From positions 1 to 43,756 of the forward strand of contig JBBRUI010000003.1 in the NCBI GenBank assembly GCA_038247945.1: DNA of 43,756 nucleotides. The letters run 5' to 3'. Both the position numbers and the translations under genes were made by a program. The notes beneath the pieces were generated by a model. It saw only the letters and a list, made by a program, of their open reading frames with translations. It made no database searches and had not been told where the DNA came from. The stretch is from Bacteroidota bacterium. Its GTDB lineage: Bacteria; Bacteroidota; Ignavibacteria; UBA10030; UBA6906. This document shows positions 5,018-22,179 of this stretch, in pieces (the stretch's first letter is position 1; every line of letters starts with the position of its first letter).

Positions 5018-5071
5018 CGATGAAGTTTTCCAGGAACCAGTTGAGACTCACGAGTATTGAAGGTGTGTAGG

Positions 5072-8000
5072 ATGAACATTGTTACTCGATGCTCCTTAAA
5101 ATTTCTTTCGTTGATGTTGCTGCTACCGTTGTGCACCCCATGTTCTCGCGCGCAAGAGAACAACCTCATCAACCAAACCCAAGCCGACGCCGACCGCAAA
5201 AGCAAAGGCTGCATTACATGTCACGGCGGCATCGAGCCGATGCACAAGAGCACAGCAGTCAAGCTTGGCTGCGTTGATTGTCACGGCGGTAATGCCGATG
5301 CAACGACGATAAAGGACGGACACGTCCAGCCAAAATACGCGGAGCGTTGGAAGACTTCTGCAAATCCCGAGCGGACGTACACGCTGCTGAACGAAGAGTA
5401 TCCCGGTTACGTCCGCTTTGTGAACCCCGGCGATTTGCGCTCTGCAGACAAAGCGTGCGGGCCATGCCACAACCAATCTTCCGACCCGATTGTGCGCAAC
5501 GTGCAGAAAAGTATGATGACAACGTCCGCATTATTGTTCGGCGGCGCAGCGTATAACAACGGAATACTCCCCACAAAAAACTATGTACTTGGAGAGAGTT
5601 ACAGTCCGGAGGGCAAGCCGCAGCGCATTAACACCGTTCCCGCACCGAGCGCGGAGGACATGAAGAACAAGGGCGTGCTGCCGTTTGTGCTTCCCCTGCC
5701 GCGATGGGAAATCACCCAGCCGCCGGATAACTTCCGGAGTTTCGAGCGCGGAGGAAAAGTTTCCCGCATCAATCCGTCTGATATAGGAATTCCGAATCCG
5801 TTTGAAGAACCGGGACGACCGGACAATAAACTCAGCGACAGAGGAACAGGGACTCAACTTCGCATCAGCTCGCCGATACTGAACATCCATAAGAGTCGGC
5901 TCAACGATCCGCATCTTTCATTTCTCGGAACGAATGACCATCCCGGCGATTATCGTTCAAGCGGATGCACGGGTTGTCACGTTGTGTACGCGAACGATCG
6001 CTCGACTTTTAATGCAGGACCGTATGCAAAGTTCGGCAACCGTGGCCAATCGCAATCTGCCGATAAAACAATATCGAAGTCTGAGCCGGGACATCCTATC
6101 AAACATCAATTCACACGTTCTATTCCATCCAGCCAGTGCATGAGCTGTCACATGCATCAGCCGAATTCTTTTGTCAACACGTATCTCGGTTTTCAGATGT
6201 GGGATTATGAAACGGATGGCGAGCAAATGTATCCGAAGCAACAGAAATATCCGACGGCTTCGGAATCTTTTTCCATGCTTGAGAAAAATCCTGAAGAAGC
6301 TGTGCTGAGAGGAAACTGGAGCAATGAAGAATTCCTTGCGAACGTCAGCGGATTGAATCCGCAACTCTCTCATACTCAGTTCTCTGATTATCACGGTCAT
6401 GGCTGGGTGTTTCGCGCCGTGTTCAAGAAGGATCGAAAGGGAAATCTGTTAGATAAGGACGGCAAGATCATTCCAGAGAATTCTCCGTTCAAGTTCGAGG
6501 GTGTTGTTCCGGTTGAAGGAGTTACACCGAAGGCTTCTGTTGTTGGAAGTCAAAAATCGCAGAAGGCCGTCCATCTCAAAGACATCCATCTCGAAAAAGG
6601 AATGCACTGCGTTGATTGTCATTTCAAGCAAGATGTACACGGAAATGGAAATCTCGTCGGAGAGTTTCACAATGCAGTTGAGATTCAATGCGTTGATTGC
6701 CATGGAACAGTTGGAGCAAAAGCGGCTCTCAAGACATCCGGAGTTGCCGCGCCGGCGGGCGGAAGTGATTTGAGCGAGATGTATACACCATTCGGCGAGC
6801 GACGTTTTCGAAAATCCGGCGGAAGAATTACGCAACGCTCCACGTTGGTCGATACGCTTCAATGGGAGATTCTGCAAACTGCAGACGCACATAAATCCAA
6901 CAAGAAAGCTGAAGCTGCCCATCTGATGATGAGAGATGGAAGAATTGGAAAGTCGGGAACGGATGAGGATATGCTCGCCCATTCATACAAGAAAATGGAA
7001 TGTCAGAGCTGCCACACGTCGTGGATAACAAACTGCTTCGGATGCCATTTGCCCCAGCAAGCGAACTGGAAGAAGCAGATGAACCACTACGAAGGAGAAA
7101 CCTCGCGCAACTGGACGAGCTACAATCCGCAGATTGCACGCGACGAAGGCTACATGCTCGGCATCGCAGGAACGACGAAAGGAAATAAAATTACGACCGT
7201 TCGCTCGTCGAGCGCGCTGGTGTTGAGTTCAGTGAATGCAAACCGCGAACAAATCTACAATCAGCAAGCGCCGATTTCTTCACCGGGGTTCAGCAGCCAG
7301 GCGTTCAATCCGCATTTCGCTCATACCGTCCGAGCAACGGAAACGAGAACATGCACGGACTGTCATCTCTCATCAAAAAATGATAACAACGCGTGGATGG
7401 CGCAACTGCTGTTGCAGGGAACGAACTTTGTGAACTTCATGGGAAAGTACGTTTATGTTGCAGCGGGGAACGGCGGTGTCGAAGCGGTGCAAGTGACCGA
7501 GCAGGATGAGCCGCAAGCCGTCATCGGGAGTTATCTGCAATCTCTGGCTTATCCGGATAACTTCCGGGAACACACGCAGAAAAAAATGGAGCTCCAAACC
7601 TCCTACCATCACGGCGGTGAGATTCTGAATGCTCAGTTGCGCGGCGAATACTTGTTTGCTGCGTGTGGTGAGGGCGGCTTCCGCGCCTACGATGTGGCGA
7701 ACATTGACAACAAGGGATTCTCGGAACGCATCATTACATCACCCGTTTCCGCGTTCGGGCAGAATACGCATGTGAAATCCCGCTACGCGACGGCTGTCGC
7801 ATTGCCGACGACTATGCCAATCGATACGCGGCGAGTTTACAGGCCGGAGAATCAGGAGCAAGGTCCTCTTCATCCTTTGTATAGCTACGCGTACATCACG
7901 GACAAGTATGAAGGACTGATTATTGTCGACGTGATGAATCTGGTCGATGCCGACCCGCGCAATAATTTTCTTGAACGGGCTTTGACATTTAATCCCGATG

Positions 8001-8761
8001 GTATGTTGAACGGCGCCGTGAACCTGACAGTTGCAGGCAAGTACGTTTACATCTGCTGCGACCGCGGGATCGTCGTCCTCAATATCGACGACCCATTGAA
8101 ACCACGGGTCGTAGGAGAAGTTGGAACGGCATTCATAAAGAAGCCCAAAGCAATTGCAGTTCAATTCCGTTACGCGTTTGTATGCGATGCTGAAGGAGTG
8201 AAGGTCCTCGATCTGACACTAAAGGAAGAACCAAAGCCGGTGAAGGGGAGTTTTATTCCTCTTCAGGATGCAAACGACATCTATGTTGCGCGAACATATG
8301 CTTACGTTGCTGCAGGGTCCCAGGGTCTTGCGATACTCGATGTGGAAAATCCGGAAGCGATGAAGATCGAAAAAATCTTCACTGCCGATGGCGTCATCAA
8401 CGATGCACAGGGAGTGAAGGTGGCGTCAACGAACGCGAGTTTGTTTGCGTATGTTGCCGATGGACGGAATGGCTTGAGGGTTATTCAATTGACGTCGCCG
8501 AAAACTGTTCCCGGATATCTCGGTTTCAGTCCGAAGCCCGCGCCGCAACTGATTGCAACGAAGAGGATGAGCGGCCGCGCCCTTGCAGTTTCCAAAGGAT
8601 TGGACAGAGATAGGGCGGTTGATGAAAGCGGCAATCAGGTGAGTGTGTTCGGAAGGCTTGGCTCCCGTCCGTTTACACTGGAAGAGATGCAGCGGATGTA
8701 TATGAAGGATGGAAAAGTTTGGACGGTGGCGGATGATGGAATCATCAAATATAAGAAATGA
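5072..8761 (+). CDS. Exported decaheme c-type cytochrome fused to a C-terminal LVIVD-repeat beta-propeller
   Basis: Ten CxxCH motifs (CITCH, CVDCH, CGPCH, CTGCH, CMSCH, CVDCH, CVDCH, CQSCH, CFGCH, CTDCH) followed by YAYV/A...GL.I.DV repeats; signal peptide. ATG at 5072 preferred over TTG at 5057. Confidence 0.9.
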   Translation: MNIVTRCSLKFLSLMLLLPLCTPCSRAQENNLINQTQADADRKSKGCITCHGGIEPMHKSTAVKLGCVDCHGGNADATTIKDGHVQPKYAERWKTSANPERTYTLLNEEYPGYVRFVNPGDLRSADKACGPCHNQSSDPIVRNVQKSMMTTSALLFGGAAYNNGILPTKNYVLGESYSPEGKPQRINTVPAPSAEDMKNKGVLPFVLPLPRWEITQPPDNFRSFERGGKVSRINPSDIGIPNPFEEPGRPDNKLSDRGTGTQLRISSPILNIHKSRLNDPHLSFLGTNDHPGDYRSSGCTGCHVVYANDRSTFNAGPYAKFGNRGQSQSADKTISKSEPGHPIKHQFTRSIPSSQCMSCHMHQPNSFVNTYLGFQMWDYETDGEQMYPKQQKYPTASESFSMLEKNPEEAVLRGNWSNEEFLANVSGLNPQLSHTQFSDYHGHGWVFRAVFKKDRKGNLLDKDGKIIPENSPFKFEGVVPVEGVTPKASVVGSQKSQKAVHLKDIHLEKGMHCVDCHFKQDVHGNGNLVGEFHNAVEIQCVDCHGTVGAKAALKTSGVAAPAGGSDLSEMYTPFGERRFRKSGGRITQRSTLVDTLQWEILQTADAHKSNKKAEAAHLMMRDGRIGKSGTDEDMLAHSYKKMECQSCHTSWITNCFGCHLPQQANWKKQMNHYEGETSRNWTSYNPQIARDEGYMLGIAGTTKGNKITTVRSSSALVLSSVNANREQIYNQQAPISSPGFSSQAFNPHFAHTVRATETRTCTDCHLSSKNDNNAWMAQLLLQGTNFVNFMGKYVYVAAGNGGVEAVQVTEQDEPQAVIGSYLQSLAYPDNFREHTQKKMELQTSYHHGGEILNAQLRGEYLFAACGEGGFRAYDVANIDNKGFSERIITSPVSAFGQNTHVKSRYATAVALPTTMPIDTRRVYRPENQEQGPLHPLYSYAYITDKYEGLIIVDVMNLVDADPRNNFLERALTFNPDGMLNGAVNLTVAGKYVYICCDRGIVVLNIDDPLKPRVVGEVGTAFIKKPKAIAVQFRYAFVCDAEGVKVLDLTLKEEPKPVKGSFIPLQDANDIYVARTYAYVAAGSQGLAILDVENPEAMKIEKIFTADGVINDAQGVKVASTNASLFAYVADGRNGLRVIQLTSPKTVPGYLGFSPKPAPQLIATKRMSGRALAVSKGLDRDRAVDESGNQVSVFGRLGSRPFTLEEMQRMYMKDGKVWTVADDGIIKYKK

Positions 8762-9808: not shown

Positions 9809-11440
9809 ATGAGCATCGGTCAGACGCAACTTAAACGTCTCGAGCAATATAAAGATCGTTGGACGTCCTTTGGCGGGAACACCGGCATCATCGAGCTTTC
9901 CGAGAAACCAACGCCTGACGTCTTGAAGAAGTACGACATTTTCAAGGACTACGACGACAAGTTCCTCGAGAAAATTTCACCCGATGTTTCGATTGCGCGA
10001 TGGAAAGCGGGAACGTTGCTGTTTGAAGAGGGAAGTTATGTCGATATAGCTTTCTATATCGTCTCGGGCGGTGTGGATGTATACCTTCAGAAGCAACAAG
10101 CCGCTGCTGCGCCGATCTTTGGAGGTTCGCGTACAAAACTCATGACGGCGCCTTTGGCAGGACAAACCAGGGTTTCTTCAGGTGGTACGAAATTCGGTTC
10201 TGCCCCGAGCGCCCCGAAGAGGGAACCCGGTTCAACTTCAATTACATTTCTTGCCTCAATGAGTTTTGATTTGCCGACCGGCGGAACGATAAAGCTTTCA
10301 GCGGGAGATATCTTCGGAGAAATTGGGGCGCTTAGTGGTTGGCCGCAATCCGCGACAGCAAAGACAACTTCGGAATGTCAACTAATCCAGATTCGTACAG
10401 CAGCGCTTCGCATCATGCGCAAACGGTCCGCGGGACTCAAAGCACGGCTCGACAAACTTTACAAAGAACGGACATTGACCTCACAGCTTCAGGCAACGCC
10501 GCTGTTCAGAGAAATAGGCGAAGCCTCGCTCAAAACTCTCGCTCAGAAGGTCGAGCTGATCTCCTGTGAACCTGACGAAGTAATTACCAAAGAGGGCGAG
10601 TTCGCCGACGCGTTGTATCTTGTGCGCTCGGGTTTCATCAAGCTGTCTCAAAAATTGGGAGAGGGAAACATCGTTGTTTCGTATCTCTCAAAAGGAAATA
10701 TTTTTGGAGACGCTGAATTATTGTTGGATGGAGAACATACATGGCTTTACACTGCTTCGTCTCAAGAATACTCCGAGTTGGTAAAGATATCCCGTTCCGA
10801 CTTCCGGTCGGTACTTGCGGAGAATCCAGCGATGGAGAGATTACTGTGGGAATCGGTCGTCGCGAGAACGAAGGAGGCAGGCTACAGCAAGCGCAACATC
10901 AACCAATCGGAATTCATTTCCACCGCGTTGAACGAGGGATTGGTAGAAGGGAACAGCATTCTTGTTATCGATCTTAATGTCTGTACGCGCTGCGATGATT
11001 GCGTCCGCGGCTGTTCCGATACGCACGGCGGCATCCCGCGGTTTGTTCGTGAGGGAAACAAAATTGGAAACTTCCTCGTCACGCGGGCGTGTTATCATTG
11101 CGAAGATCCTGTATGCCTGATAGGTTGTCCGACCGGAGCAATTCGCCGGACCGATGTTGGTGACGTTGTCGCAATCGATGACAACCTTTGCATCGGCTGC
11201 TCTTCGTGCGCGAACAATTGTCCGTACGATGCAATCACCATGCATGACACTGGCGAGATGTGGCCCGGCGATATGATTCCCGAGGGACTGCGCGGAAAAG
11301 AAAAGCAGCTTGCCACCAAATGCGACCTTTGCTATCAAGACCCCGCTGGTCCGGCTTGTGTGCGGAGTTGCCCGCATGGCTGTGCCGTGCGCGTGGGCGA
11401 TGTGCAGGAGTTTAGAAGCTTGTTGTGGAAAGATGTGTAG
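9809..11440 (+). CDS. Two cNMP-binding (CAP-effector-fold) domains fused to a DmsB/NrfC-type 4x[4Fe-4S] ferredoxin
   Basis: LFEEG...YIVSGGV...FGEIG and ITKEGE...YLVRSG...FGD domains; Cys groups CTRCDDCVRGC, CYHCEDPVCLIGCP, CIGCSSCANNCP, KCDLC...PACVRSCP. ATG at 9809 preferred over TTG at 9749. Confidence 0.9.
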   Translation: MSIGQTQLKRLEQYKDRWTSFGGNTGIIELSEKPTPDVLKKYDIFKDYDDKFLEKISPDVSIARWKAGTLLFEEGSYVDIAFYIVSGGVDVYLQKQQAAAAPIFGGSRTKLMTAPLAGQTRVSSGGTKFGSAPSAPKREPGSTSITFLASMSFDLPTGGTIKLSAGDIFGEIGALSGWPQSATAKTTSECQLIQIRTAALRIMRKRSAGLKARLDKLYKERTLTSQLQATPLFREIGEASLKTLAQKVELISCEPDEVITKEGEFADALYLVRSGFIKLSQKLGEGNIVVSYLSKGNIFGDAELLLDGEHTWLYTASSQEYSELVKISRSDFRSVLAENPAMERLLWESVVARTKEAGYSKRNINQSEFISTALNEGLVEGNSILVIDLNVCTRCDDCVRGCSDTHGGIPRFVREGNKIGNFLVTRACYHCEDPVCLIGCPTGAIRRTDVGDVVAIDDNLCIGCSSCANNCPYDAITMHDTGEMWPGDMIPEGLRGKEKQLATKCDLCYQDPAGPACVRSCPHGCAVRVGDVQEFRSLLWKDV

Positions 11441-11574: not shown

Positions 11575-12411
11575 ATGAAAGAGCTTTTCAAAAGACTTCA
11601 GCTTGATCGCTTTGTTCGCTCGCCCGAATGGGCAGTTGCGCTTATTGTTGCGACAGTCATCTGCTGTGCTGTGTACGCGCTGAACGCTCTGGTTTCAGAA
11701 ATAAATCCCGGTAACTGGTGGGGATTGACATACGGAATAATTTCCTCCCTGCTTATGTTCGGTGCAGGACTGTACGGCGTACGCAGGCGGATGTTAAATC
11801 GGAACCTGGGTAATTCAAAAGTGTGGGTGCAGTTTCACATCTATGGCGGAGCGCTTGCAGGCGTACTCGTCCTTATGCATACAGGCTTTCGTTTGCCGTA
11901 TGGCCTGTTCAACTGGCTGCTGTGGCTGCTTTCTATATGGGTAACGGTAAGCGGATTGCTCGGCGTTGCATTGCAGCGATGGATACACCGTATTCTTTCC
12001 TCCGCGCTTTCGATTGAAGCGATATACGAAAGAATCCCGGAACTGGTGATGCAGTTGCGCGAGCGGGCGGAGAAACTGGTTGCATCGTGTGCCGAACCTA
12101 TCCAGGATTTTTACAGGGCCAATGTTGCGGCTACGTTGGCAGCACCCGAGGCTCGACTTATTTATTACTTCGATATTACCGGCGGCGTACAATCACGAGT
12201 GAAGCAATTTGAATTTCTCAGACGCGTGCTTTCATCAGATGAAAAAGAAATATTCGACAAGATTCAAGGAATTTACAAATCGAAATTGGAATTGGACGCT
12301 CATTATTCTCTTCAGCGCTCATTGCGGTGGTGGTTGTACACGCACGTGCCGGCTTCGTTCGTTCTGTTGCTCATGATCGCATTTCATATTTTCGCAGTTT
12401 TATATTACTAG
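11575..12411 (+). CDS. Polytopic membrane protein, probable di-heme cytochrome b (ferric-reductase-like TM domain)
   Basis: About 5 hydrophobic segments; two His pairs in TM helices (WVQFHIYGG...LMHTG; WLYTHVP...AFHIF). Confidence 0.75.
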   Translation: MKELFKRLQLDRFVRSPEWAVALIVATVICCAVYALNALVSEINPGNWWGLTYGIISSLLMFGAGLYGVRRRMLNRNLGNSKVWVQFHIYGGALAGVLVLMHTGFRLPYGLFNWLLWLLSIWVTVSGLLGVALQRWIHRILSSALSIEAIYERIPELVMQLRERAEKLVASCAEPIQDFYRANVAATLAAPEARLIYYFDITGGVQSRVKQFEFLRRVLSSDEKEIFDKIQGIYKSKLELDAHYSLQRSLRWWLYTHVPASFVLLLMIAFHIFAVLYY

Positions 12412-12412
12412 A

Positions 12413-14002
12413 ATGGCAAAACCCGGAAACGAAAACAGAAGGAAGGGAACATTCGCCCGCGGGTTGCTTCCCGTTGCGAAAACGTATATCCGTCCCGTCA
12501 CGCGAAAAAAGCTGGCGATTCTCGGCGGTATCGGTTGCGCACTGGTTGCGCTCTATTATGTTGCCGATGCGTTTCTTCTGAGCAGCACATTCCTTTCCGG
12601 CGGACCGCTTTCCGCTAACCATTCAAATTTTGAAAGTGAATGCGCAAAGTGTCATCAGTCGTTCCGAGGCGTTGTAAATTCCAAGTGCTCGGTCTGTCAT
12701 GAAAAGACAAACGACAAGCTCGGCGTGTACACGTTCAAAGCACATTATCTGCACAGGTCGGAGGAAACGAAACGGATTCAGGATGGGATGTCAAAGCACG
12801 GAAAGGATGAAACAAACTGCGCTTCCTGCCATCCCGATCATCGTGGCCGCGGCGCGGCGATTACGCGTGTGCTCGATTCGCAATGCGCTCAATGTCATTA
12901 CTCATCGTTCAACAAAGATCATCCGCCGTTCCGTCTCCTTGCTGTCGCTGACGATTCTACATTGAAGATGACACACGTGAAGCACACGAAGGAACTCCTG
13001 AAGAAATTAAACACGCCGAACATCGAGCAGGCTTGCCTCTACTGCCACAATCCGCAACCAGATGGGAAAGGTTTCAAGGCGCTTGACTTCGATATGCACT
13101 GCGCTGATTGTCATCTCACCACATCTTCTGAAACGCCCGCATTGACAATAAAGGATGCTTCGATCGCTGCATCTCCGGGTGTTGAGACGCTTGAGACGAT
13201 TCAGCGCCGCAAAGGTCCCGGTACGATCTGGGCTTTCTACACAAACCCGAATGAGTTCAGTGTATCAAATGGGAAAGTAAAGAAATCGCCCGTCTACCAT
13301 CGTGATCCATGGATACTCGAAAATCTGAAGCAGATATACCGGACTCTGTATTCGGATTCAAGCCTTGCGGATTTGTTAAACGCATCGGGACGCGGGGCAA
13401 CAAAGAGTAAACAACAAATTTATGCTGAGGCGATCAAGACGCTGCGGGATTATGTGGCCGGGCTCCGTTCGCGGCCTGAGCCTGAAGTGCAAATGGAATT
13501 GGTCAGGATCGATTCGTTGCTGAACGCGGCGGAGAGTAAGATCATGAGGGGCAGAGAAATACTTCCTGACCTTATGCCGATGATGAAAATGATTTCGGAG
13601 AATTCATCGCTGACCCAAGAACAGCGTGCCGCTCTTGAAGACTTTGCCCTGAAGCTTACTCGGCCTTGCCAGGAATGTCACATGGTGGAACACGCTTCGA
13701 TTCTTAGCGTGAAGGCGAGCCAGCGAACTTTCCAACGCGCAGAGTTCGATCATCGTGCGCACATCACACAGCGCCGTTGCCTTGAATGTCACGATGTTAT
13801 TCCGGTAGAGCAAGCCCTTGCCGGTGATACGACAGGCATTGCGGTGATAGATAAAGCTTCTACGAAAAATATTCCCGGTATTCAGAATTGTTATGAATGC
13901 CATACGAAAGATGCAGGTTCCAATGCCTGCGTCACCTGCCATTTCATGCATCCGAACAAGGAGAACAGAGGAAGCTTGCAACTTTTTGTAACGAAGCAAT
14001 GA
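12413..14002 (+). CDS. Membrane-anchored decaheme c-type cytochrome (cytochrome c3/c7-like repeats)
   Basis: Basic N-terminus plus TM helix, GPLSANH, ten CxxCH motifs (CAKCH, CSVCH, CASCH, CAQCH, CLYCH, CADCH, CQECH, CLECH, CYECH, CVTCH). Confidence 0.9.
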   Translation: MAKPGNENRRKGTFARGLLPVAKTYIRPVTRKKLAILGGIGCALVALYYVADAFLLSSTFLSGGPLSANHSNFESECAKCHQSFRGVVNSKCSVCHEKTNDKLGVYTFKAHYLHRSEETKRIQDGMSKHGKDETNCASCHPDHRGRGAAITRVLDSQCAQCHYSSFNKDHPPFRLLAVADDSTLKMTHVKHTKELLKKLNTPNIEQACLYCHNPQPDGKGFKALDFDMHCADCHLTTSSETPALTIKDASIAASPGVETLETIQRRKGPGTIWAFYTNPNEFSVSNGKVKKSPVYHRDPWILENLKQIYRTLYSDSSLADLLNASGRGATKSKQQIYAEAIKTLRDYVAGLRSRPEPEVQMELVRIDSLLNAAESKIMRGREILPDLMPMMKMISENSSLTQEQRAALEDFALKLTRPCQECHMVEHASILSVKASQRTFQRAEFDHRAHITQRRCLECHDVIPVEQALAGDTTGIAVIDKASTKNIPGIQNCYECHTKDAGSNACVTCHFMHPNKENRGSLQLFVTKQ

Positions 14003-14003
14003 C

Positions 14004-14936
14004 ATGAAAGCCAAACTGTTTTGCAAAACGGGACAACTCTCCGGCGCAACATTCGAGATTCAACCCGTCACCACGATCGGGAAGAATGCTGAGAATACAA
14101 TTCAATTGTACCCCGCGTTGATTTCGGGAAAACATGCGCGCATTTCCTTCGATGAAAAATCGAACGGATATTTTCTCGAAGACCTGAACAGCCGGAACGG
14201 TACGCGCCTCGACGGAATGAGGGTACGGGGGAAAGAACGGTTGGGCAAATTGAACGTCATAACATTCGCCGACACATTTGATTTCTTTTTTCAGATTGTC
14301 GAGGCAGGGGCTTCGTCGTCACCTGCTTCGCAACCTGCAAAATCGCCAACCTTGCAACGGCCGGAACCCGTTCCTCGTCCGAACGTCAAACAGCCCGTGA
14401 CCGAAGTGAATAAGGAATTCGCTCCAATACCCGAGATTGAAGTTGAAGCAAGACAAAAAACAATTTTGGATGACGGTGGTTTCGTTTTTCCTTCAATTTT
14501 AGAGGAAAAGAAGAATGAAACGCCCGCAGCAGCGCGAACGAAAGTCGGCGTAGAATTTACGCCTCTACCGTCGTTCAGTCCTGAAAGCGCCCGGCGCGCT
14601 GAATTGGAGCGAGCTGCAGGGCAACAGGTTGCTCCGAAATATGTTCTGATTTTTGAGACGCTGAAAGACGGACCGAAAACTTTTGATATAAAAGAAGGAT
14701 CTACAATTGTTGGACGTGACGCCTCCTGTGCGATTCCAGTCGACGATGGCTCGGTCTCTCGAAAACACGCGGAGTTTGTCTTCGAGCGCGGCAGGCTTAC
14801 CCTCAAAGATCTCGGAAGCAAGAACCACACGCACATTGATGACCAGAGAATCTCACGGGAGGTGGAGTTGCGAGAAGGGATGGAAATCAGTTTCGGACTT
14901 TTGAAGGCCCGGTTGGTGAAGAAGCCTACAAAATGA
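14004..14936 (+). CDS. Double FHA-domain protein with Pro/Thr-rich linker
   Basis: N-terminal IGK...ISGKHA...DLNSRNGT and C-terminal VGR...VSRKHA...DLGSKNHT FHA signatures. Confidence 0.9.
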   Translation: MKAKLFCKTGQLSGATFEIQPVTTIGKNAENTIQLYPALISGKHARISFDEKSNGYFLEDLNSRNGTRLDGMRVRGKERLGKLNVITFADTFDFFFQIVEAGASSSPASQPAKSPTLQRPEPVPRPNVKQPVTEVNKEFAPIPEIEVEARQKTILDDGGFVFPSILEEKKNETPAAARTKVGVEFTPLPSFSPESARRAELERAAGQQVAPKYVLIFETLKDGPKTFDIKEGSTIVGRDASCAIPVDDGSVSRKHAEFVFERGRLTLKDLGSKNHTHIDDQRISREVELREGMEISFGLLKARLVKKPTK

Positions 14937-14955: not shown

Positions 14956-17274
14956 ATGCCTGACATAGAATACAAGTCCGATGGGTCGCTGGTTCTAAAC
15001 CAGCCTGTTCAGCTTCCCGAAGTCCTCGACTTGCTCGTCGTGGGCGGCGGACCTGCGGGAACTGCTGCAGCATTCAGGGCGAAAGAACTGGGACTGAATG
15101 TTCTGGTGATCGATTACGACGATTTGATGAAACGGATCCGGGATTATCCGAAAGACAAACTGATCCTTCCCGATTTTGGCGGCGGTGATCAAATGCGCTT
15201 TCCGAAAGGCGGCGACTTGATTACCGCGCTGCATTTTTCCGCTCTTGATAAGGATGAGATGGTGAATGAATGGAAGCGTCTGTACGTAACGCACAATGTC
15301 CCCGCGAAGATAGGCATAGAACTTCTTGGAATGCAACGACGAAGCGACGGTGTGCTGCAGGTGAAAACATGGAACCATACCATCCGGGCTGAAGAACAGA
15401 TTCTCGCAAAGCACATTGCAATCGGAATCGGACGCGGCGTACCGCGCCGCTTCGACATCCCCGGCAACACGGATGGCATTGCATACAGGCTTGCTGATGC
15501 GCAGGCATACGTGGGCAATCCATCGCTCATCATCGGCGGGGGAACTTCGGCGGCAGAAGCTGTGATTGCAATTTCAAATGCCAAAACAAAAACCCGGGAT
15601 GCATCGGCTGTCTACTGGGCGTATCGCGGCGATAAGCTTCCCAAAGTTTCCAAAGCGCTCGCGGACGTTTTCTTTGAAGCGTATATGGGCAACGGCAATA
15701 TTCGATATTTCCCCAATAGTGAACCCGTCGCCGTTGTAACCGCGGACGATAAGCAGGAATATTTTTCGCTGAGGACGGATCGCAAAACAATTGCCGGGCG
15801 TCCCAATGAGACCTCCCACCTGGAATTCCTCAAAGATTTTTGCGTTGCATGCATTGGCGAGGATATCCCGGAGGCGTTTCTTTCATCTATCGGTGTCAGC
15901 ATGGTAACCGGTGGTGCAGCGAACAAAAAGCGCATGTGTGTTTCACCGTTGCTGGAAACGCAACAACCGAACGTCTATCTCATCGGCGATATTCTAAGTC
16001 AGGTGTATCTCGAAACAGATGATTTCAAATCTGACCCGTCGGCGTTCCGGGAGGTAAAACATCGTGGCAACATAAAAGCCGGGATGATTGATGGAGTGAT
16101 TGTCGCGGAAGTTGTTGCTCAAAGGATTGCGGGAAAAAAAGATATCGACGTGCAGGTGGAATTCGTTGCGGATGTTCCTGCAGAAAAATCGAAACCGGCC
16201 GGACCGTTGATGACGATTTTATCCTCACTTGAAGATTCATCCACACAAAAGCAAACCGGCGCACAGCAAGAAAGTATCCCATATGCGGTTCTGGTGCGAG
16301 TAACTGCCGGTGGAGTGGAAGAAGATGAGTTTCCTCTCAAACACAATGGCGTGACAACGATCGGAAAGAAGTTCTGCGATATTGTTTTTCCCGACGACGT
16401 GAATCTCTCCGAACGTCATGCATCTCTGTCGCATGGTCCCGACGGTTTTTCTTTGCGAGATGATGGAAGCCAGACCGGAGTGTTCTTATCTGCTACCGAA
16501 GGGAAACCTGTTCAGGTAGCGAACGGAGATCTCATACGACTCGGACGGCAATTCCTGGTCTTCAAGGAAGACAACGGGATTTTTTCTTTCATCCACTACG
16601 ACCGGACGGGCAAACAGATCGGCAAGCACTCGCTTGCGCCGGAGAAAACTGTTGTTCTTGGCCGCGAAGCTCCTGATATTACTCTTGACGCGTCGGACAT
16701 GACACTCTCCCGCCGGCATGTTTCTGTTGCCGTGAAAGAGGGACAAGTATTCATCAAGGATTTAAAGAGCGCGAACGGCACGTATCTGAAAGTTCGCAGC
16801 GCGACTCCCATCGGGCCCGGGGAAATGTTTCGTGCCGGGAATCAGGCATTCCGGCTGAGTGTGCAAAAAGAAGCTGCTACCGGAAGTGTTCGACTTCAGT
16901 CAAGACCGCCCTCTGTTGCCAAACCGAAACCAAAGGCTGATGTATTACCTCCGGAAAAGAAAGCGGAACCTCCCGCGCAGAAGGGAATGGTTGTGGTGTT
17001 CAAGAACCTCGGAAAAACAGTTGCGTTCGAACCCGGCCAGACAATCTGCAGCATTGCCGAAAAGAACGGAATCAAAATTGTCGCTGAATGTCATGCAGGC
17101 ATTTGTGGAAGCGACCCGATCAAGATAGTGTCGGGTAAAGAAAATCTGAGTACTATGGGGGCCGACGAGAAGGGGACATTGGAAGATATCTGTGGTTTGA
17201 ATCCCGGCGAACACAGGCTTGCGTGTATGGCGAAACCAACCAATACAGTTGAAATAGAAATTACCAGCGCGTGA
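14956..17274 (+). CDS. TrxB/YpdA-like FAD/NAD(P)H oxidoreductase fused to two FHA domains and a C-terminal [2Fe-2S] ferredoxin
   Basis: VVGGGPAG, IIGGGTSA..A, YRG, YLIGD motifs; FHA motifs LSERHA/DGSQTGV and LGR/LSRRHV/LKSANGT; CHAGICGSD...RLAC. Confidence 0.88.
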   Translation: MPDIEYKSDGSLVLNQPVQLPEVLDLLVVGGGPAGTAAAFRAKELGLNVLVIDYDDLMKRIRDYPKDKLILPDFGGGDQMRFPKGGDLITALHFSALDKDEMVNEWKRLYVTHNVPAKIGIELLGMQRRSDGVLQVKTWNHTIRAEEQILAKHIAIGIGRGVPRRFDIPGNTDGIAYRLADAQAYVGNPSLIIGGGTSAAEAVIAISNAKTKTRDASAVYWAYRGDKLPKVSKALADVFFEAYMGNGNIRYFPNSEPVAVVTADDKQEYFSLRTDRKTIAGRPNETSHLEFLKDFCVACIGEDIPEAFLSSIGVSMVTGGAANKKRMCVSPLLETQQPNVYLIGDILSQVYLETDDFKSDPSAFREVKHRGNIKAGMIDGVIVAEVVAQRIAGKKDIDVQVEFVADVPAEKSKPAGPLMTILSSLEDSSTQKQTGAQQESIPYAVLVRVTAGGVEEDEFPLKHNGVTTIGKKFCDIVFPDDVNLSERHASLSHGPDGFSLRDDGSQTGVFLSATEGKPVQVANGDLIRLGRQFLVFKEDNGIFSFIHYDRTGKQIGKHSLAPEKTVVLGREAPDITLDASDMTLSRRHVSVAVKEGQVFIKDLKSANGTYLKVRSATPIGPGEMFRAGNQAFRLSVQKEAATGSVRLQSRPPSVAKPKPKADVLPPEKKAEPPAQKGMVVVFKNLGKTVAFEPGQTICSIAEKNGIKIVAECHAGICGSDPIKIVSGKENLSTMGADEKGTLEDICGLNPGEHRLACMAKPTNTVEIEITSA

Positions 17275-18052: not shown

Positions 18053-19765
18053 ATGCAGTCGTCCATTATCGGCAAGATTGTAGATAACTATGAAATCACC
18101 GCCATCCTCGGCAAGGGCGGGATGGGGGTCGTTTACAAGGCAAAGGATATGACGCTGGATCGCGTCGTTGCGCTGAAGATGATGGATGATAACTTCGCCC
18201 GCGATGAGGAGTTTCTCAAGCGGTTCAAGTCCGAAGCAAAAGCGCTTGCGAAACTGCAGAATCCCAACATCGTCAGTGTATTTGCATTACGGGAAACCGA
18301 AATCGGGTTTGCGTTGGTGATGGAGTTTGTAGATGGAAATACTCTTGCAGATCGCATTCGCCTGCAAGGCGCAATCCCTCCGGCAATTGCTCTTCCGATT
18401 TTCAAACAATTGCTTATTGCGCTCGGCGACGCGCATCGCAACAATGTGATCCACCGGGACATCAAGCCCGGCAACGTTATGATTACAAGCGATAACGTTG
18501 TGAAGGTTACGGATTTCGGATTGGCTAAGATTCAGCAAGTAATAAACGCCACCGTTACCATGGGCACCGGCGGCACATTGTACTATATGTCGCCGGAACA
18601 AATACGGGCTCTCGCCAATGTCGATGCCCGCGGAGACATCTACTCCTTAGGCATGACGCTGTACGAAACACTTACGGGACGTGTGCCGTTCGAAACCGAC
18701 GCCACCGATTTCGACATCCGCCAGAAAATTGTTGAAGGGAAGATTCCTTCGCCGGAAAAGTTCAACCCCGCCTTGCCGAAAGACCTCGTGCAGATCGTCA
18801 TGAAATCCATTCACCGCGACCCGAACAAGCGTTTCCAAACCTGTGCTGAGATGCTCGAGGGGTTATCCAAAGTCGATCTTAAGCGCTACAATGGAAAACA
18901 TACACCGACGACTGGCGAGCCGTTGCCGGTTCGTGTCAAAGCAAGCCCGCTCTCGCCTTTCCGTTTGAAAGTCTATCTTCCCGTAGCATTGGGTGTGCTT
19001 TTGATTGCAGGGTATTTTCTCGTACAGCCATTGCTTACTTCGTCTGCAACACTCAGCATCGATTCTGATCCTGCGGGATCGAAAGTGTTGGTAGATGGAA
19101 CGCTTATCGGCACGACGCCGATCAAGAATTATTCTGCTGCTGCGGGAAACATGACGGTAAGAGTTGATCGCGAAGGATATTTCGTGAGAGATACCACGCT
19201 GTCTCTGAAAGAGGGAGAAAATTCTGCGCTTTCGATTGTGTTGACCAAACTACCCGATCGCTCCTCCCCACCGCTTGAAGAAAAGAAAAATTCGATCGTT
19301 ACAGAGAAACCCAAAGCCGTGGCTTCTGTGGGTATGGCGACACTGCGGTTGAAGGTGGAGCCGAAGGGAATCGTATCGGTGGATGGAGGAGCAAAATCGA
19401 ATAATGAAAATGAGTTCCAAGTCACAGCCGGTGAGCGGAGTATACTCTTTGAGAATCCGAAATACGGAAGCAAGCGTATCACAGTCAATGTAAGGCCGGG
19501 CGAGATCAAGCAACTGACGTGTTATTTTGAAACGTATGTGAGCATCGTAGCATCGGGGGACGCGGCGTGGGGACTCGTGGTGATCGATGGAAAAACAACA
19601 GACGTGCAAACCCCGATCGACGGCTTGCCATTCGGGCCCGGCAAACATCGCATCAGCGTTGCAAAGATCGGATTTGAAACGGTTGAGGGGGAGAAAATTG
19701 TCAACGTAGCGCCTTCGTTTGAAAAGAAGACTGAGCGGCTGGCTTTCACGTTGAAAAGAAAGTGA
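18053..19765 (+). CDS. Hanks-type Ser/Thr protein kinase with TM helix and extracytoplasmic PEGA domains
   Basis: LGKGGMGVVY, VALK, HRDIKPGN, DFG, YMSPEQ, DIYSLG; TM VYLPVALGVLLIAGYFLV; SDPAGSKVLVDG..IGTTP PEGA repeat. Confidence 0.96.
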   Translation: MQSSIIGKIVDNYEITAILGKGGMGVVYKAKDMTLDRVVALKMMDDNFARDEEFLKRFKSEAKALAKLQNPNIVSVFALRETEIGFALVMEFVDGNTLADRIRLQGAIPPAIALPIFKQLLIALGDAHRNNVIHRDIKPGNVMITSDNVVKVTDFGLAKIQQVINATVTMGTGGTLYYMSPEQIRALANVDARGDIYSLGMTLYETLTGRVPFETDATDFDIRQKIVEGKIPSPEKFNPALPKDLVQIVMKSIHRDPNKRFQTCAEMLEGLSKVDLKRYNGKHTPTTGEPLPVRVKASPLSPFRLKVYLPVALGVLLIAGYFLVQPLLTSSATLSIDSDPAGSKVLVDGTLIGTTPIKNYSAAAGNMTVRVDREGYFVRDTTLSLKEGENSALSIVLTKLPDRSSPPLEEKKNSIVTEKPKAVASVGMATLRLKVEPKGIVSVDGGAKSNNENEFQVTAGERSILFENPKYGSKRITVNVRPGEIKQLTCYFETYVSIVASGDAAWGLVVIDGKTTDVQTPIDGLPFGPGKHRISVAKIGFETVEGEKIVNVAPSFEKKTERLAFTLKRK

Positions 19766-19791
19766 TTGTTCATAATGGAAGGGAAAGAGCA

Positions 19792-20808
19792 ATGAGAAAA
19801 GCGAAATATATTCTGGCGATGGCGTGCTGTGTTGCGTTCGTTTGCAGTACGTTGAATGCGCAAACAAATATCGGGAAGAAGCTGGATGAAGCGATGAGGC
19901 TGTATAATTCTGCAAACTTTGATAAAGCGATCGTGCTATTATCACAATTGGCAGAAGACAAAACCGTCGAGAGCAAAGACAAGAAAAATGTTCTTCTCGC
20001 CCTCGGCCGATCGTACATCGCAAAAGGAAATAAGAAGGGAGCCACGACGGCGATGCTGAAGCTGCTGGAGTTGGAACCGCCGATCATCGAGCCCGACCCC
20101 GACGCCGAGTGTCCGCCGTTGATGAAAGTTTATTACGAAGCGAGAAAATCAAAATCCGGCACAATGCAGGTTGAGCAGCGGAACGATCCCGGCATCAAGA
20201 CAATTGCCATCCTCGATTTCGCAAACCGTTCCGTCGACGATAAAAATAAATATGATCCCCTGGAAAAAGGTTTTGCGGAACTCATGATCGATCAGCTCAA
20301 TGGTTCTGTAAATCTAAAAGTCATTGAACGTGAGAGGATCCAATGGATTTTGAATGAGATAGGATTGGAAAACGATCCCGGGAAGTTCGATCAGTCGTCC
20401 GCGGTGCGTGTGGGTAAGCAGCTTGGTGTTCATTCCATCCTCCTGGGAAGCTTCATCAAAGTGAAAGACAACATGAAGCTGCTCGCCCGGCTGGTAAAAG
20501 TAGAGACGAGCGAAATTATTGCAACGGAACAAAGCAACGGCGATGCCGATGAGTTTTTTGAGATTGCAGAAAATCTCAGCGTGAAGATCGCAAAGAAAAT
20601 CAATGCGTCGCTCACGAAAGCCGAAGTGGAAAAGGGAACCGAAACCAAATCGCTTGACGCCATGATGTCGTATTCCGAAGGGCTCGTTCTTCTCGAAAAG
20701 GGGAACTACAAAGGCGCATATGAAAAATTCATGCTTGCTCTTCAGATTGATCCCAGGTACGACAAGGCACGGATGAAAGCCGAGAGCCTGAAACCGTTGC
20801 TCGGGTAA
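19792..20808 (+). CDS. Exported TPR protein with CsgG/HfaB (FlgO/TolB-N-like) domain
   Basis: Signal peptide ending LNA-Q; TPR-like helices; IAILDF...KVIERERI...AVRVGKQLGVHSILLGSF...RLVKVETSEII. ATG at 19792 preferred. Confidence 0.8.
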   Translation: MRKAKYILAMACCVAFVCSTLNAQTNIGKKLDEAMRLYNSANFDKAIVLLSQLAEDKTVESKDKKNVLLALGRSYIAKGNKKGATTAMLKLLELEPPIIEPDPDAECPPLMKVYYEARKSKSGTMQVEQRNDPGIKTIAILDFANRSVDDKNKYDPLEKGFAELMIDQLNGSVNLKVIERERIQWILNEIGLENDPGKFDQSSAVRVGKQLGVHSILLGSFIKVKDNMKLLARLVKVETSEIIATEQSNGDADEFFEIAENLSVKIAKKINASLTKAEVEKGTETKSLDAMMSYSEGLVLLEKGNYKGAYEKFMLALQIDPRYDKARMKAESLKPLLG

Positions 20809-20895
20809 TTTAGATTTGTCGAATGACTACACTCCATCCAGTGCGGGAGGGAAGAGAGTCGATGCCGGACTAGTATTCACTGCAACGGAATTCCC

Positions 20896-22179
20896 ATGCG
20901 GAATTTGTTCTTTGCTTTTCTTTTGATCATTACCCTTTCTTCGTGCGCAACTGTAAAGTTTGACAGCGCACCAACGGACTACGTCGCCGACCTTGCCAGG
21001 CTGCAACGCCAGCTCCTTATCCGCCCAAACGACCCGACGCTCTTACGCGACCTCGGCACTCTCTACTTCCAAGCAAAGAAATACAATGATGCCCGATCTC
21101 CGCTGTTTCGTTCGTACGGGTTAAAAGCAGATGACCCGCGTACAATTTTTTACTACGGAATGACGCTTGAGTATCTCACCGAGAGTGAAGCGGCACTGCG
21201 TGTCTACATCAATTACACGGACGTCTCATCTTTTTCTCCTTATCGCAAGCTGATTGAAGGACGTTACCGCATCCTGACAAGAGAAATCGTCCAGCAACAG
21301 TTCCAGGTTCTTCTCGCGAACGAGCAAAAACTGGGGACGGAAAGAATTGTTCCGAAAGCTGTAGCGGTTTTTCCACTCGCGTATCAGGGAACTGACTCAA
21401 AGTACAATGCGCTTGGAAAGGGATTAAGCGAAATGATGCTCATCGATCTCGGCCAGGTGAAAAGTCTGACGATGATCGAGCGGATTCGCATCGAAGCGCT
21501 GCTGGGAGAATTGCAATTCGGTCAATCAAATAAGGTCGACCGTGCAACGGCGCCGCGCCTCGGAAAGTTGTTGGGGGCGGGGAAGATTGTTTCAGGCGCG
21601 TTCAATGTCAGCAACAACAATCTCCGCATGGACGTTGCTGCCTGGGATGTTGTCAACAGAAAATATCCCGAACTCAAAACAAAAATGGACGATCTTGATA
21701 ACCTGTTCGCCGTGGAGAAGGAGATTGTTTTTGGCGTCATCAAAGAACTCGGCATTACGCTGACGCGTGAAGAGCGTGAAAAAGTTCAGTTCATCCCCAC
21801 AAAAAATACTCTCGCGTTTATCAATTATTGTCTCGGACTGCAGAATGACGATGCCCGTGATTTTCAAAGTGCGAAGGTATATTACAACCAGGCTGTTACG
21901 CTTGATCCGAACTTCGGGCTCGCAAAGACAAAACTCGCAGCGGCAGAGGCATTGAATATCGGAGGAGGAAGCAAAGAGAATGCACTGCTGGTTGCCGAAC
22001 AAATTGATCCATCGCGAAAGAAAAAGAAAGACAGGATCAATCTTGTGATGGACAGACTCAACAATCTTGAGAATGGGATCGGCATTCCGTTCAAGCATGG
22101 ACAAGAAGACCGTAAAGGTGCGCAAGAGGCAGCGGATGGAGTCCTTCTCCCGGGACCACCTCCACCACCGAACAGATAG
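20896..22179 (+). CDS. Lipoprotein with TPR repeats and CsgG/HfaB-like domain
   Basis: Lipobox LSSC; N-terminal TPRs; VAVFPL...MIERIRIEALLGE...APRLGKLLGAGKIVSG; C-terminal TPR and poly-Pro tail. Confidence 0.8.
   Translation: MRNLFFAFLLIITLSSCATVKFDSAPTDYVADLARLQRQLLIRPNDPTLLRDLGTLYFQAKKYNDARSPLFRSYGLKADDPRTIFYYGMTLEYLTESEAALRVYINYTDVSSFSPYRKLIEGRYRILTREIVQQQFQVLLANEQKLGTERIVPKAVAVFPLAYQGTDSKYNALGKGLSEMMLIDLGQVKSLTMIERIRIEALLGELQFGQSNKVDRATAPRLGKLLGAGKIVSGAFNVSNNNLRMDVAAWDVVNRKYPELKTKMDDLDNLFAVEKEIVFGVIKELGITLTREEREKVQFIPTKNTLAFINYCLGLQNDDARDFQSAKVYYNQAVTLDPNFGLAKTKLAAAEALNIGGGSKENALLVAEQIDPSRKKKKDRINLVMDRLNNLENGIGIPFKHGQEDRKGAQEAADGVLLPGPPPPPNR

Follow-up and report, generated by a model that had tools for sequence, protein, structure and literature searches.

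A conserved flavoprotein-FHA-FHA-ferredoxin fusion with an invariant aspartate in the third cluster-ligand column, encoded among redox genes of a Bacteroidota bacterium

Background

What might a single polypeptide do that joins a flavoprotein, two phosphopeptide-binding FHA domains and a ferredoxin domain, and that offers an aspartate where a [2Fe-2S] ferredoxin would offer its third cysteine? The question is raised by a gene in a 43,756-nucleotide stretch of DNA, here called the window, which comprises positions 1 to 43,756 (forward strand) of contig JBBRUI010000003.1 (assembly GCA_038247945.1) from a Bacteroidota bacterium (GTDB lineage Bacteria; Bacteroidota; Ignavibacteria; UBA10030; UBA6906). 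A sequence-only reading of the window, made by a model without database searches, had singled out this gene, and the present study follows up its claims by comparative analysis of the protein, its domains and its genomic surroundings.

Natural non-cysteinyl ligands tune the potentials and the reactivity of Fe-S clusters. To our knowledge, well-studied [2Fe-2S] centres with three Cys and one Asp as ligands are few, SdhB and NfnS being the two that we can name. In actinobacteria, the small FHA proteins GarA and OdhI answer to Ser/Thr kinases by switching metabolic enzymes, and they engage in self-binding of a phospho-Thr tail. We know of no description of bacterial Ser/Thr signalling that acts directly on a redox chain in multihaem cytochrome systems.

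Results and discussion

An intact gene for a four-domain protein

Pfam assigned to the 772-residue product the same series of domains that the sequence-only reading had proposed. Pyr_redox_2 and Pyr_redox_3 cover residues 25-347 (E values of 2.3e-18 and 5.9e-16), two FHA stretches follow (E 3.8e-20; Yop-YscD_cpl at 449-538 and FHA from 566-614 onward), and Fer2 occupies residues 686-762 with 26.1 bits, against a gathering score of 21. In a word-indexed protein search, 852 of the 8000 candidates scored reached E <= 0.001. A set of 120 listed proteins, the query included, was aligned, and all counts out of 120 refer to it; these proteins share 55-86% identity over 85-100% of the query length and the same Pfam set. 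Because the whole 772-residue arrangement recurs at this level of identity in the 119 other listed proteins, the architecture lies far beyond chance, and on such comparative evidence the fusion is a real, widely conserved four-domain redox protein. Its homologues carry generic database names, such as 'FHA domain-containing protein', 'FAD-dependent oxidoreductase' or, at JGI, 'thioredoxin reductase/FHA protein/ferredoxin'.

The possibility of a sequencing error, raised when the Asp was first seen, finds no footing in the contigs compared. The window has 0 differences to Logan contigs of run X1, possibly the source sample, and 0 to a metagenome contig from an independent study (X3 in Logan, 154 bases, 17027-17180), which spans the Asp codon and carries the same GAC. 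This codon is two base changes away from any Cys codon (TGY). With Asp in all 120 aligned proteins, an intact and full-length reading frame, and a single copy of the gene in its own genome (91.9% complete), an error of sequencing or assembly, or a gene in decay, is so improbable that we set it aside.

The fusion is spread widely and unevenly. A locus scan with a single genome for each species gave 206 pattern matches, of which 167 were relatives, and 80 loci were kept, all of them records of metagenome-assembled genomes. Their titles name Bacteroidota, Ignavibacteria, Rhodothermales (Salinibacter-like genomes included), KSB1, Zixibacteria, Eisenibacteria, Gemmatimonadota, Acidobacteriota and a few others. 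Within the phylum of the window the gene occurs in only 8 of 401 sampled genomes, its own included, and it is present in four of the five other genomes of the genus. This patchy presence, together with an identity of still at least 50% across phyla, suggests horizontal movement of the gene set.

Three cysteines and one aspartate in the ligand columns

The ferredoxin domain reads CHAGICGSD ... RLAC, and the span that had been given for this motif is exact. Fer2 domains are expected to present four Cys (C-x4/5-C-x2-C...C); here Asp720 takes the third position, as an Asp does in all 120 homologues, and Cys712, Cys717 and Cys757 are equally invariant. Homologues with Cys at this place, which the sequence-only reading had allowed for, did not appear among the 120. 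The Asp is a genuine occupant of the third ligand position, where the closest canonical ferredoxins have their third Cys in the alignment.

For a view beyond the fusion, residues 676-772 were searched alone against 1.84 billion representative proteins, which gave 341 matches at E <= 0.001, 80 of them at <= 1e-10; the 150 best of these 341 matches contributed 153 domains to an alignment from which all counts out of 153 are taken. The four ligand columns hold Cys in 146, Cys in 148, Asp in 146 (Cys in 5, a gap in 2) and Cys in 147 domains. No other column is mainly Cys, and none exceeds 68. When only the 140 domains with all three core Cys are considered, the third position is Asp in 135 and Cys in five. 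These five all-Cys members are short stand-alone ferredoxins that align end to end with the domain of the fusion, their third ligand falling on the Asp. The Asp is likewise aligned with the third Cys of the canonical relatives P0220, P0244, P0266 and P0253 and, when the profile of the wider family is set against the Protein Data Bank (PDB), stands opposite the Cys of CGTC in 9i2a (Ferredoxin-4, E 3.6e-18); 87 PDB sequences match this profile at E <= 0.01. Ferredoxin-4 and the first three of these relatives are, respectively, the nearest solved and the nearest all-Cys relatives of the domain, alignable from end to end including ...RLAC; unlike the fusion family, they are stand-alone proteins with Cys in the place of Asp-Pro.

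The ligation had been pictured as 3Cys-Asp or as a rearranged set. Since neither Cys746, the spare Cys of 'EDIC', nor Cys698 is conserved in the wider family, three Cys and one Asp form the conserved set, and the only conserved candidate ligands of the domain, as judged from the alignments, are Cys712, Cys717, Asp720 and Cys757. We infer that the domain binds a [2Fe-2S] cluster with 3Cys+1Asp ligation. An all-Cys cluster, in which Cys698 or Cys746 would join Cys712, Cys717 and Cys757 while Asp720 merely shaped the loop, is improbable. It draws on two facts that weigh against our assignment: Cys698 is Cys in 119 of the 120 fusion homologues and might serve this family as its own fourth Cys, and 129 of the 135 Asp-type domains hold at least one further Cys (one to four, at varying positions), so that counting alone leaves the alternative standing. 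Yet no further Cys exists in the remaining six. The rearrangement through the EDIC Cys is disfavoured, Cys746 being Cys in 89 of 120 homologues (Asn in 30, a gap in one) and in 68 of the 153 domains. The Cys698 column holds Leu in 79 and Cys in 53 of the 153, while Asp is kept in 146; the residue lies in the first helix, where canonical ferredoxins have a hydrophobic side chain, and the Asp falls exactly in the ligand column. Cys698 thus seems better explained as a residue particular to this lineage that fills a hydrophobic site of the helix. A degenerate ferredoxin-like domain devoid of a cluster, serving as a structural or docking module only, could be argued from the one missing canonical ligand and from the modest Pfam score of Fer2, but it is very improbable: neither the three Cys nor the Asp varies across phyla and architectures, the Asp-type domain always accompanies NAD(P)H flavoproteins, and CxxGxCGxD is found also in E. 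coli SdhB, whose cluster is functional.

The comparison with SdhB is instructive in both directions. The E. coli K-12 protein reads CREGVCGSD in translation and shares C-x-x-G-x-C-G-S-D with the fusion, whose Fer2 domain thus has the CxxGxCGxD pattern of SdhB-type 3Cys-1Asp centres, with Asp in the third ligand column. Asp63 of SdhB is known from structural work on succinate:quinone reductase as a ligand of a functional [2Fe-2S] cluster. SdhB belongs to another Fer2 subfamily, however: its fourth Cys follows after 11 residues, against 36 in the fusion, and it adds [4Fe-4S] and [3Fe-4S] domains, whereas the fusion has no Fer4 domain and hence not the Fer2_3 organization of SdhB. The resemblance would accordingly be one of ligation, not of family. 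A second parallel is drawn from PMC9503767, according to which the first acceptors in NfnSL are FeS clusters with Asp or Glu replacing Cys. NfnS/NfnA, like the fusion, would place a [2Fe-2S] cluster with an Asp for a Cys ligand beside a flavin in an NAD(P)H enzyme (PMC9503767); unlike it, the Nfn enzyme is bifurcating, and the fold and the position of the cluster motif are unrelated. Asp ligation is therefore known chemistry, and what is unfamiliar is the setting, a plant-type-fold family in which the Asp is invariant.

A wider subfamily with Asp as a family trait

In the wider family the Asp is usually followed by Pro, giving CxxGxCGxDP. The feature noticed in the window is thus real and extends beyond this gene, being the defining trait of a wider Fer2 subfamily that occurs in other architectures as well. 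By alignment, the CxxGxCGxDP domains are a wider, unnamed Fer2 subfamily with Asp as a family trait. With 341 representative clusters, it offers a comparative series for the effect of a carboxylate on [2Fe-2S] centres.

Pfam architectures were examined in 28 of the 150 representatives, many of which are Fer2(Asp)-Pyr_redox_2-Rubredoxin_C reductases. Their source names are generic only. A theme seems to recur in them: the Asp-type [2Fe-2S] domain stands with a flavoprotein for NAD(P)H on one side and a redox module of the membrane on the other.

Several of these proteins merit separate mention. A second Asp-type Fer2 family, of about 880 residues and with the motif CRMGVCGADP, has a multi-transmembrane domain followed by Fer2(Asp)-Pyr_redox_2-Rubredoxin_C (P0221, P0237, P0190, P0228, P0215, P0261). 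ESM-Atlas neighbours of one of its N-terminal transmembrane (TM) regions are named 'hypothetical' or 'ferredoxin family', with Fer4_5 in 11% of one cluster, a hint that this region may be a NapH-like Fe-S membrane protein. FHA domains occur also in P0228, P0215 and P0241, and P0123 carries three tandem Asp-Fer2 copies. P0206 (637 residues) joins FHA and TIR_2 to an Asp-type Fer2-like C-terminus (CWIGMCGCDP), an architecture that is signalling- or defence-like.

A flavoprotein close to ferredoxin reductases

The N-terminal domain has the thioredoxin reductase (TrxR) fold, with GGGPAG as its flavin adenine dinucleotide (FAD) motif and GGGTSAAEA as its NAD(P)H motif. The position of the redox CxxC in TrxR, just ahead of IIGGGTSAAEA, reads GIAYRLADAQ and holds no Cys. 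The absence of CxxC at this site, remarked on from the single sequence, extends to the family: columns 176-183 contain Cys in 0 of the 120 aligned homologues. The CVAC that had been noted further on is also confirmed; it lies on a strand equivalent to the xxVAIG strand of TrxR-family enzymes, and its two Cys, C296 and C299, are conserved in 111 and 119 of the 120.

The best sequence matches in the PDB are YpdA/Bdr (7a76, E 1.3e-8, and 7a7b), followed by TrxR-type ferredoxin-NAD(P)+ reductases (FNRs). Foldseek, run with the AlphaFold2 (AF2) model, returned 7a76 YpdA (2e-22), 6gar FNR1 (2.4e-21), 3ab1 (4.4e-20) and 3lzw (1.4e-19), and also 6gas and 2zbw, with the five FNRs between E 1e-19 and 2e-21. 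The description of the enzyme as FNR/YpdA-like therefore stands as regards its best solved relatives, and fails if taken to mean YpdA proper. YpdA/Bdr are the best match in both sequence and fold, but the active-site Cys of their GGGPCG is Ala34 in the fusion, and this column holds Ala in 102, Gly in 15 and Cys in none of the 120; membership is also rejected by TIGR04018 (61.8 bits against a cut-off of 339.9). Thioredoxin reductase itself was rejected too, with no CxxC in 120 of 120 and 24.1 bits against the cut-off of 343.45 of TIGR01292.

What the domain does possess is the combination expected of a TrxR-type FNR, namely the TrxR fold, the FAD and NAD(P)H motifs and no CxxC. Solved enzymes of this type, YumC of B. 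subtilis (3lzw), 3ab1 of Chlorobaculum, FNR1 and FNR2 of B. cereus (6gar, 6gas) and 2zbw of T. thermophilus, share with it the two-Rossmann TrxR fold, the glycine motifs for FAD and NAD(P)H, the lack of CxxC and, as the partner to be expected in redox reactions, a ferredoxin. They are only 16-20% identical to it, and in the fusion, by contrast, the ferredoxin stands in cis behind two FHA domains and the flavoprotein has in addition a DFGGGDxMxFP insert and the motif GRGVPRRFDIPG. Given a ferredoxin on the same chain, the simplest role of the flavoprotein would be to transfer electrons in the manner of an NAD(P)H:ferredoxin enzyme. No counterpart of DFGGGDxMxFP or GRGVPRRFDIPG was noted in the alignments with YpdA or FNR; the two motifs could form a partner or substrate site.

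Phospho-Thr readers between the redox domains

Both FHA domains have the GarA/OdhI proteins as their best solved relatives; unlike those small modules, they are built into the redox enzyme itself, so that the fusion places phospho-Thr readers inside an electron-transfer enzyme. Judged by hidden Markov model match and by the residues that bind phospho-Thr, FHA2 is a full FHA domain and FHA1 is so in part. The pocket residues of FHA2 (G569, R570, S585, H588, S605, N607 and G608) are each found in 118-120 of the 120 homologues, and its phospho-Thr pocket is complete as far as its residues tell. The pocket of FHA1 is partly degenerate, with K471 for Arg and T507 for Asn; among the 120, column 471 is Arg in 89 and Lys in 16, and column 507 is Thr in 64 and Asn in 39.

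The linker ahead of FHA1 is predicted to be disordered. It contains Thr at column 420 in 48 and at column 418 in 32 of the 120, and column 649 is Thr or Ser in 89. T420 and S649 may be suggested as phospho-acceptor sites, as semi-conserved guesses, and by analogy with GarA one might further suggest that the FHA domains bind to the linkers of their own chain.

A conserved company of redox genes

The fusion gene lies in a same-strand, tightly packed run, in the order HbpS-like protein, 572-residue protein, LVIVD cytochrome, c554-like cytochrome, Fe-S protein with cyclic nucleotide monophosphate (cNMP)-binding domains, 278-residue membrane protein, decahaem cytochrome, FHA-FHA protein (FHAx2), fusion, PP2C phosphatase, Ser/Thr kinase (STK) with PEGA, and two TPR/CsgG-like proteins. 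How constant these neighbours are was counted over the 80 loci, each count being limited to loci with enough flanking DNA. Upstream, FHAx2 was found in 56 of 70 loci, the decahaem cytochrome in 57 of 62, the membrane protein in 56 of 61, the cNMP-Fe-S protein in 49 of 57 and the c554-like cytochrome in 45 of 54; downstream, PP2C was found in 25 of 64 and STK in 28 of 57. From these counts, it is redox proteins that accompany the fusion constantly; the kinase module need not be present in cis. The proposal that the fusion physically links the redox and the phospho-signalling halves of the locus accordingly holds in the window; across the relatives the phosphatase and kinase are facultative, while the cytochrome and membrane genes are constant. 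In six loci (L029, L033, L034, L057, L060 and L075) the HbpS, 572-residue and LVIVD genes lie downstream of the fusion instead: the gene set is reshuffled but kept together.

The constant membrane partner is a protein of 278 residues with five predicted TM helices. An alignment of 58 sequences has His88, His102, His243 and His257 in 58 of 58 and His271 in 57. The pairs 88/102 and 257/271, each 14 residues apart, lie on two predicted TM helices, as the ferric reductase superfamily would require, and two His pairs spaced by 14 on two TM helices are the classical bis-His arrangement for two haems. The AF2 model is confident, with a predicted local distance difference test (pLDDT) of 90.7 and a predicted template modelling score (pTM) of 0.79. 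Among its top counterparts in VIA-align were the di-haem membrane cytochromes CybB (5oc0, Z 8.6, root-mean-square deviation 3.0 over 128 residues), STEAP4 (7.8), FdnI (7.2), b561 (7.2) and Dcytb (6.8), values that unrelated helical proteins match. The nearest ESM-Atlas clusters (scores 0.95-0.96) bear the automatic name 'Ferric reductase like transmembrane component', which is a lead, not a test. Going by its invariant His pairs, the protein probably represents an unnamed family of di-haem, ferric-reductase-like cytochromes b, marked by a helical insert of about 100 residues on the cytoplasmic side.

A possible electron path and its alternatives

We regard as moderately probable a reading in which electrons would pass from NAD(P)H to FAD, on to the Asp-ligated [2Fe-2S] cluster and into a transmembrane haem conduit, gated by phospho-Thr binding to the FHA domains. 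The fusion would be cytoplasmic; NAD(P)H would reduce its FAD, and the FAD would reduce the 3Cys-1Asp cluster within the same polypeptide. From there electrons might reach the two b haems of the membrane protein, either directly or via the cytoplasmic poly-[4Fe-4S] cNMP protein, and then the periplasmic multihaem cytochromes, the whole amounting to a split, NOX/Fre-like transmembrane electron conduit. The outward direction is an assumption, taken as the thermodynamically easier one. The FHA domains and the FHAx2 partner, with PP2C and STK where these are present, would dock phospho-Thr proteins or linker sites and so switch the flow on or off, and cNMP might provide a second input to the conduit. 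The carboxylate would probably serve to tune the potential, to render one of the iron sites labile, or both.

This logic would be that of NOX/FRE, STEAP and MsrQ with its flavin reductase, in which a cytoplasmic NAD(P)H flavoprotein feeds a bis-His di-haem membrane domain and, through it, an acceptor outside. The differences are considerable: here the dehydrogenase has the TrxR fold and not the FNR fold, it is a separate polypeptide with an extra [2Fe-2S] cluster and FHA domains, the 278-residue protein, predicted to have five helices, does not pass the Pfam model PF01794, and the acceptors are multihaem cytochromes. A more ambitious version, which we put forward tentatively as a possibility, would make the fusion the NAD(P)H-oxidizing head of an undescribed, quinone-independent conduit that comprises FAD, [2Fe-2S], the cNMP-regulated poly-[4Fe-4S] protein, the di-haem protein, and the decahaem and LVIVD-propeller cytochromes. 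It would be switched by FHA domains and spread as a cassette, a 'regulated NOX', among Bacteroidota, KSB1, Zixibacteria, Gemmatimonadota and Acidobacteriota, and CxxGxCGxDP would mark a distinct class of Asp-ligated ferredoxin for hand-offs from flavoprotein to membrane. Asp-ligated [2Fe-2S] clusters, TrxR-type FNRs and FHA regulators are each known singly; their combination and the Asp-type ferredoxin subfamily appear undescribed. The sequence-only reading had reckoned with an architecture already characterized, and no characterization was found in print: a literature search met no description of the architecture, of the CxxGxCGxDP subfamily or of the gene set, with coverage that is thin for subscription journals and leaves the absence unproven. 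The conserved gene set suggests a new route on which uncultured bacteria of sediment and soil could bring electrons of NAD(P)H into the periplasm or farther out, and would thereby bear on extracellular electron transfer and metal cycling.

A number of observations weigh against the proposed path, in which everything beyond the domain assignments is inference. The model of the fusion (mean pLDDT 80.2, pTM 0.50) has low confidence in both linkers and in the cluster loop 711-716, where pLDDT is <50, and is unusable for geometry or domain packing. FHA1 of the window has Lys for the canonical Arg, and the kinase and phosphatase are missing near the fusion in most related loci. The membrane protein gave no match in Pfam and NCBIfam scans, its model found nothing in the PDB at E <= 0.001 with Foldseek, and its VIA Z scores of 7-9 lie in a range that is uninformative for helical bundles. 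Among the membrane-linked relatives, the Ferric_reduct match of P0261 is weak (21.3 bits against a Pfam cut-off of 28), and hhalign of the 278-residue protein with the N-terminal TM domains of 13 of the ~880-residue Asp-Fer2 proteins gave a probability of 0.2%, that is, no homology, so that the Rosetta-stone argument from fused TM-Fer2-reductase forms is one of analogy only.

The main rival takes the fusion for a redox or small-molecule sensor and not a bulk carrier. Flavin and Asp cluster would report the NAD(P)H/NAD(P)+ ratio, the redox state of the cytochromes, or a ligand that displaces the carboxylate (nitric oxide, O2 or sulfide), and the FHA domains would turn this state into phospho-Thr-dependent contacts with FHAx2, PP2C and STK. 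Such a sensor is consistent with two FHA domains set between the redox domains, with GarA/OdhI-type regulators as their best solved relatives, with a fusion gene that in the window overlaps the PP2C gene and has the STK gene next, with a cNMP-binding Fe-S protein as constant neighbour, and with the signalling-type architecture of P0206, in which FHA and TIR_2 accompany an Asp-type Fer2. It also has a precedent in NsrR, described in PMC5411485 as having an Asp-ligated cluster from which nitric oxide is proposed to displace the Asp. We nevertheless find it rather unlikely. The constant neighbours are electron-transfer proteins that together have some 20 haems and about four [4Fe-4S] clusters, PP2C and STK are both facultative, and most Asp-type Fer2 domains of the wider family are joined to NAD(P)H reductases and membrane domains, in the manner of catalytic chains. 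The two readings, sensor and carrier, are partly compatible.

Features of the locus

The features of the fusion and of its neighbours are collected in Table 1.

Table 1. Positions of the fusion gene, its domains and motifs, and neighbouring genes in the window
Feature	Position	Strand	Basis or remark
Fusion gene, 772 aa, flavoprotein-FHA-FHA-[2Fe-2S]	14956..17274	+	ATG start; open reading frame (ORF), Pfam and 119 full-length homologues
TrxR-fold FAD/NAD(P)H domain, residues ~22-395	15019..16140	+	Pfam, Foldseek, column counts
Invariant motif DFGGGDxMxFP, residues ~73-83	~15172-15204	+	family-specific
Invariant motif GRGVPRRFDIPG, residues 159-170	~15430-15465	+	family-specific
CVAC, residues 296-299	15841..15852	+	column counts
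Predicted disordered linker 1, residues ~404-441, semi-conserved T420	16165..16278	+	pLDDT <50 over 407-441
FHA1, residues ~443-539, partly degenerate pocket	16282..16572	+	Pfam
FHA2, residues ~542-637, canonical phospho-Thr pocket	16579..16866	+	G569-R570, S585-R-R-H588, S605-x-N607-G608
Plant-type-fold Fer2 domain, C-terminal, residues ~678-770	16987..17265	+	Pfam; profile against PDB 9i2a
C698, Cys of the fusion family only, at a core Leu position of relatives	17047..17049	+	column counts
Proposed ligand set C712-x4-C717-x2-D720 ... C757	17089..17226	+	codons 17089-17091, 17104-17106, 17113-17115 and 17224-17226
C746 ('EDIC'), spare non-conserved Cys	17191..17193	+	column counts
533-aa protein (two HbpS-like stretches) and 572-aa protein (signal-like N-terminus)	1601-4917	+
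LVIVD-repeat secreted cytochrome, 1234 aa, 10 CxxCH	5057-8761	+
Cytoplasmic protein, two cNMP-binding domains and four DmsB/NrfC-type poly-[4Fe-4S] Cys clusters	9809..11440	+	no signal peptide
278-aa five-helix membrane protein, probable di-haem b, ferric-reductase-like	11575..12411	+	invariant His pairs
Membrane-anchored decahaem c-type cytochrome, 529 aa, 10 CxxCH	12413..14002	+
FHA-FHA (FHAx2) protein, 310 aa, conserved partner	14004..14936	+	Pfam
PP2C phosphatase, overlapping the fusion stop codon	17271..18050	+	Pfam
Ser/Thr kinase with PEGA domain	18053..19765	+	Pfam

Some smaller observations concern the neighbours. The LVIVD cytochrome is co-conserved with the fusion, upstream of it in some phyla and downstream in KSB1-like loci, and in part resembles ExtM, a protein from the operon for selenite/tellurite reduction (95.8 bits, where the cut-off is 800). 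The ORF of the cNMP-Fe-S protein opens at 9749, and its homologues align from M21, which makes 9809 the probable start; a polyferredoxin regulated by cyclic nucleotides is in itself unusual. Beyond the kinase, on the same strand (19762-22179), follow two tandem paralogous lipoproteins with TPR and CsgG/FlgO-like domains and then an outer-membrane beta-barrel protein, which are co-conserved with PP2C and STK and not with the fusion. Farther along, the listed ORFs for an NlpC/P60-SH3 protein (36106-37302) and an MR_MLE enolase-family protein (37013-38425), both on the forward strand, overlap by 290 nucleotides, and the second probably starts later.

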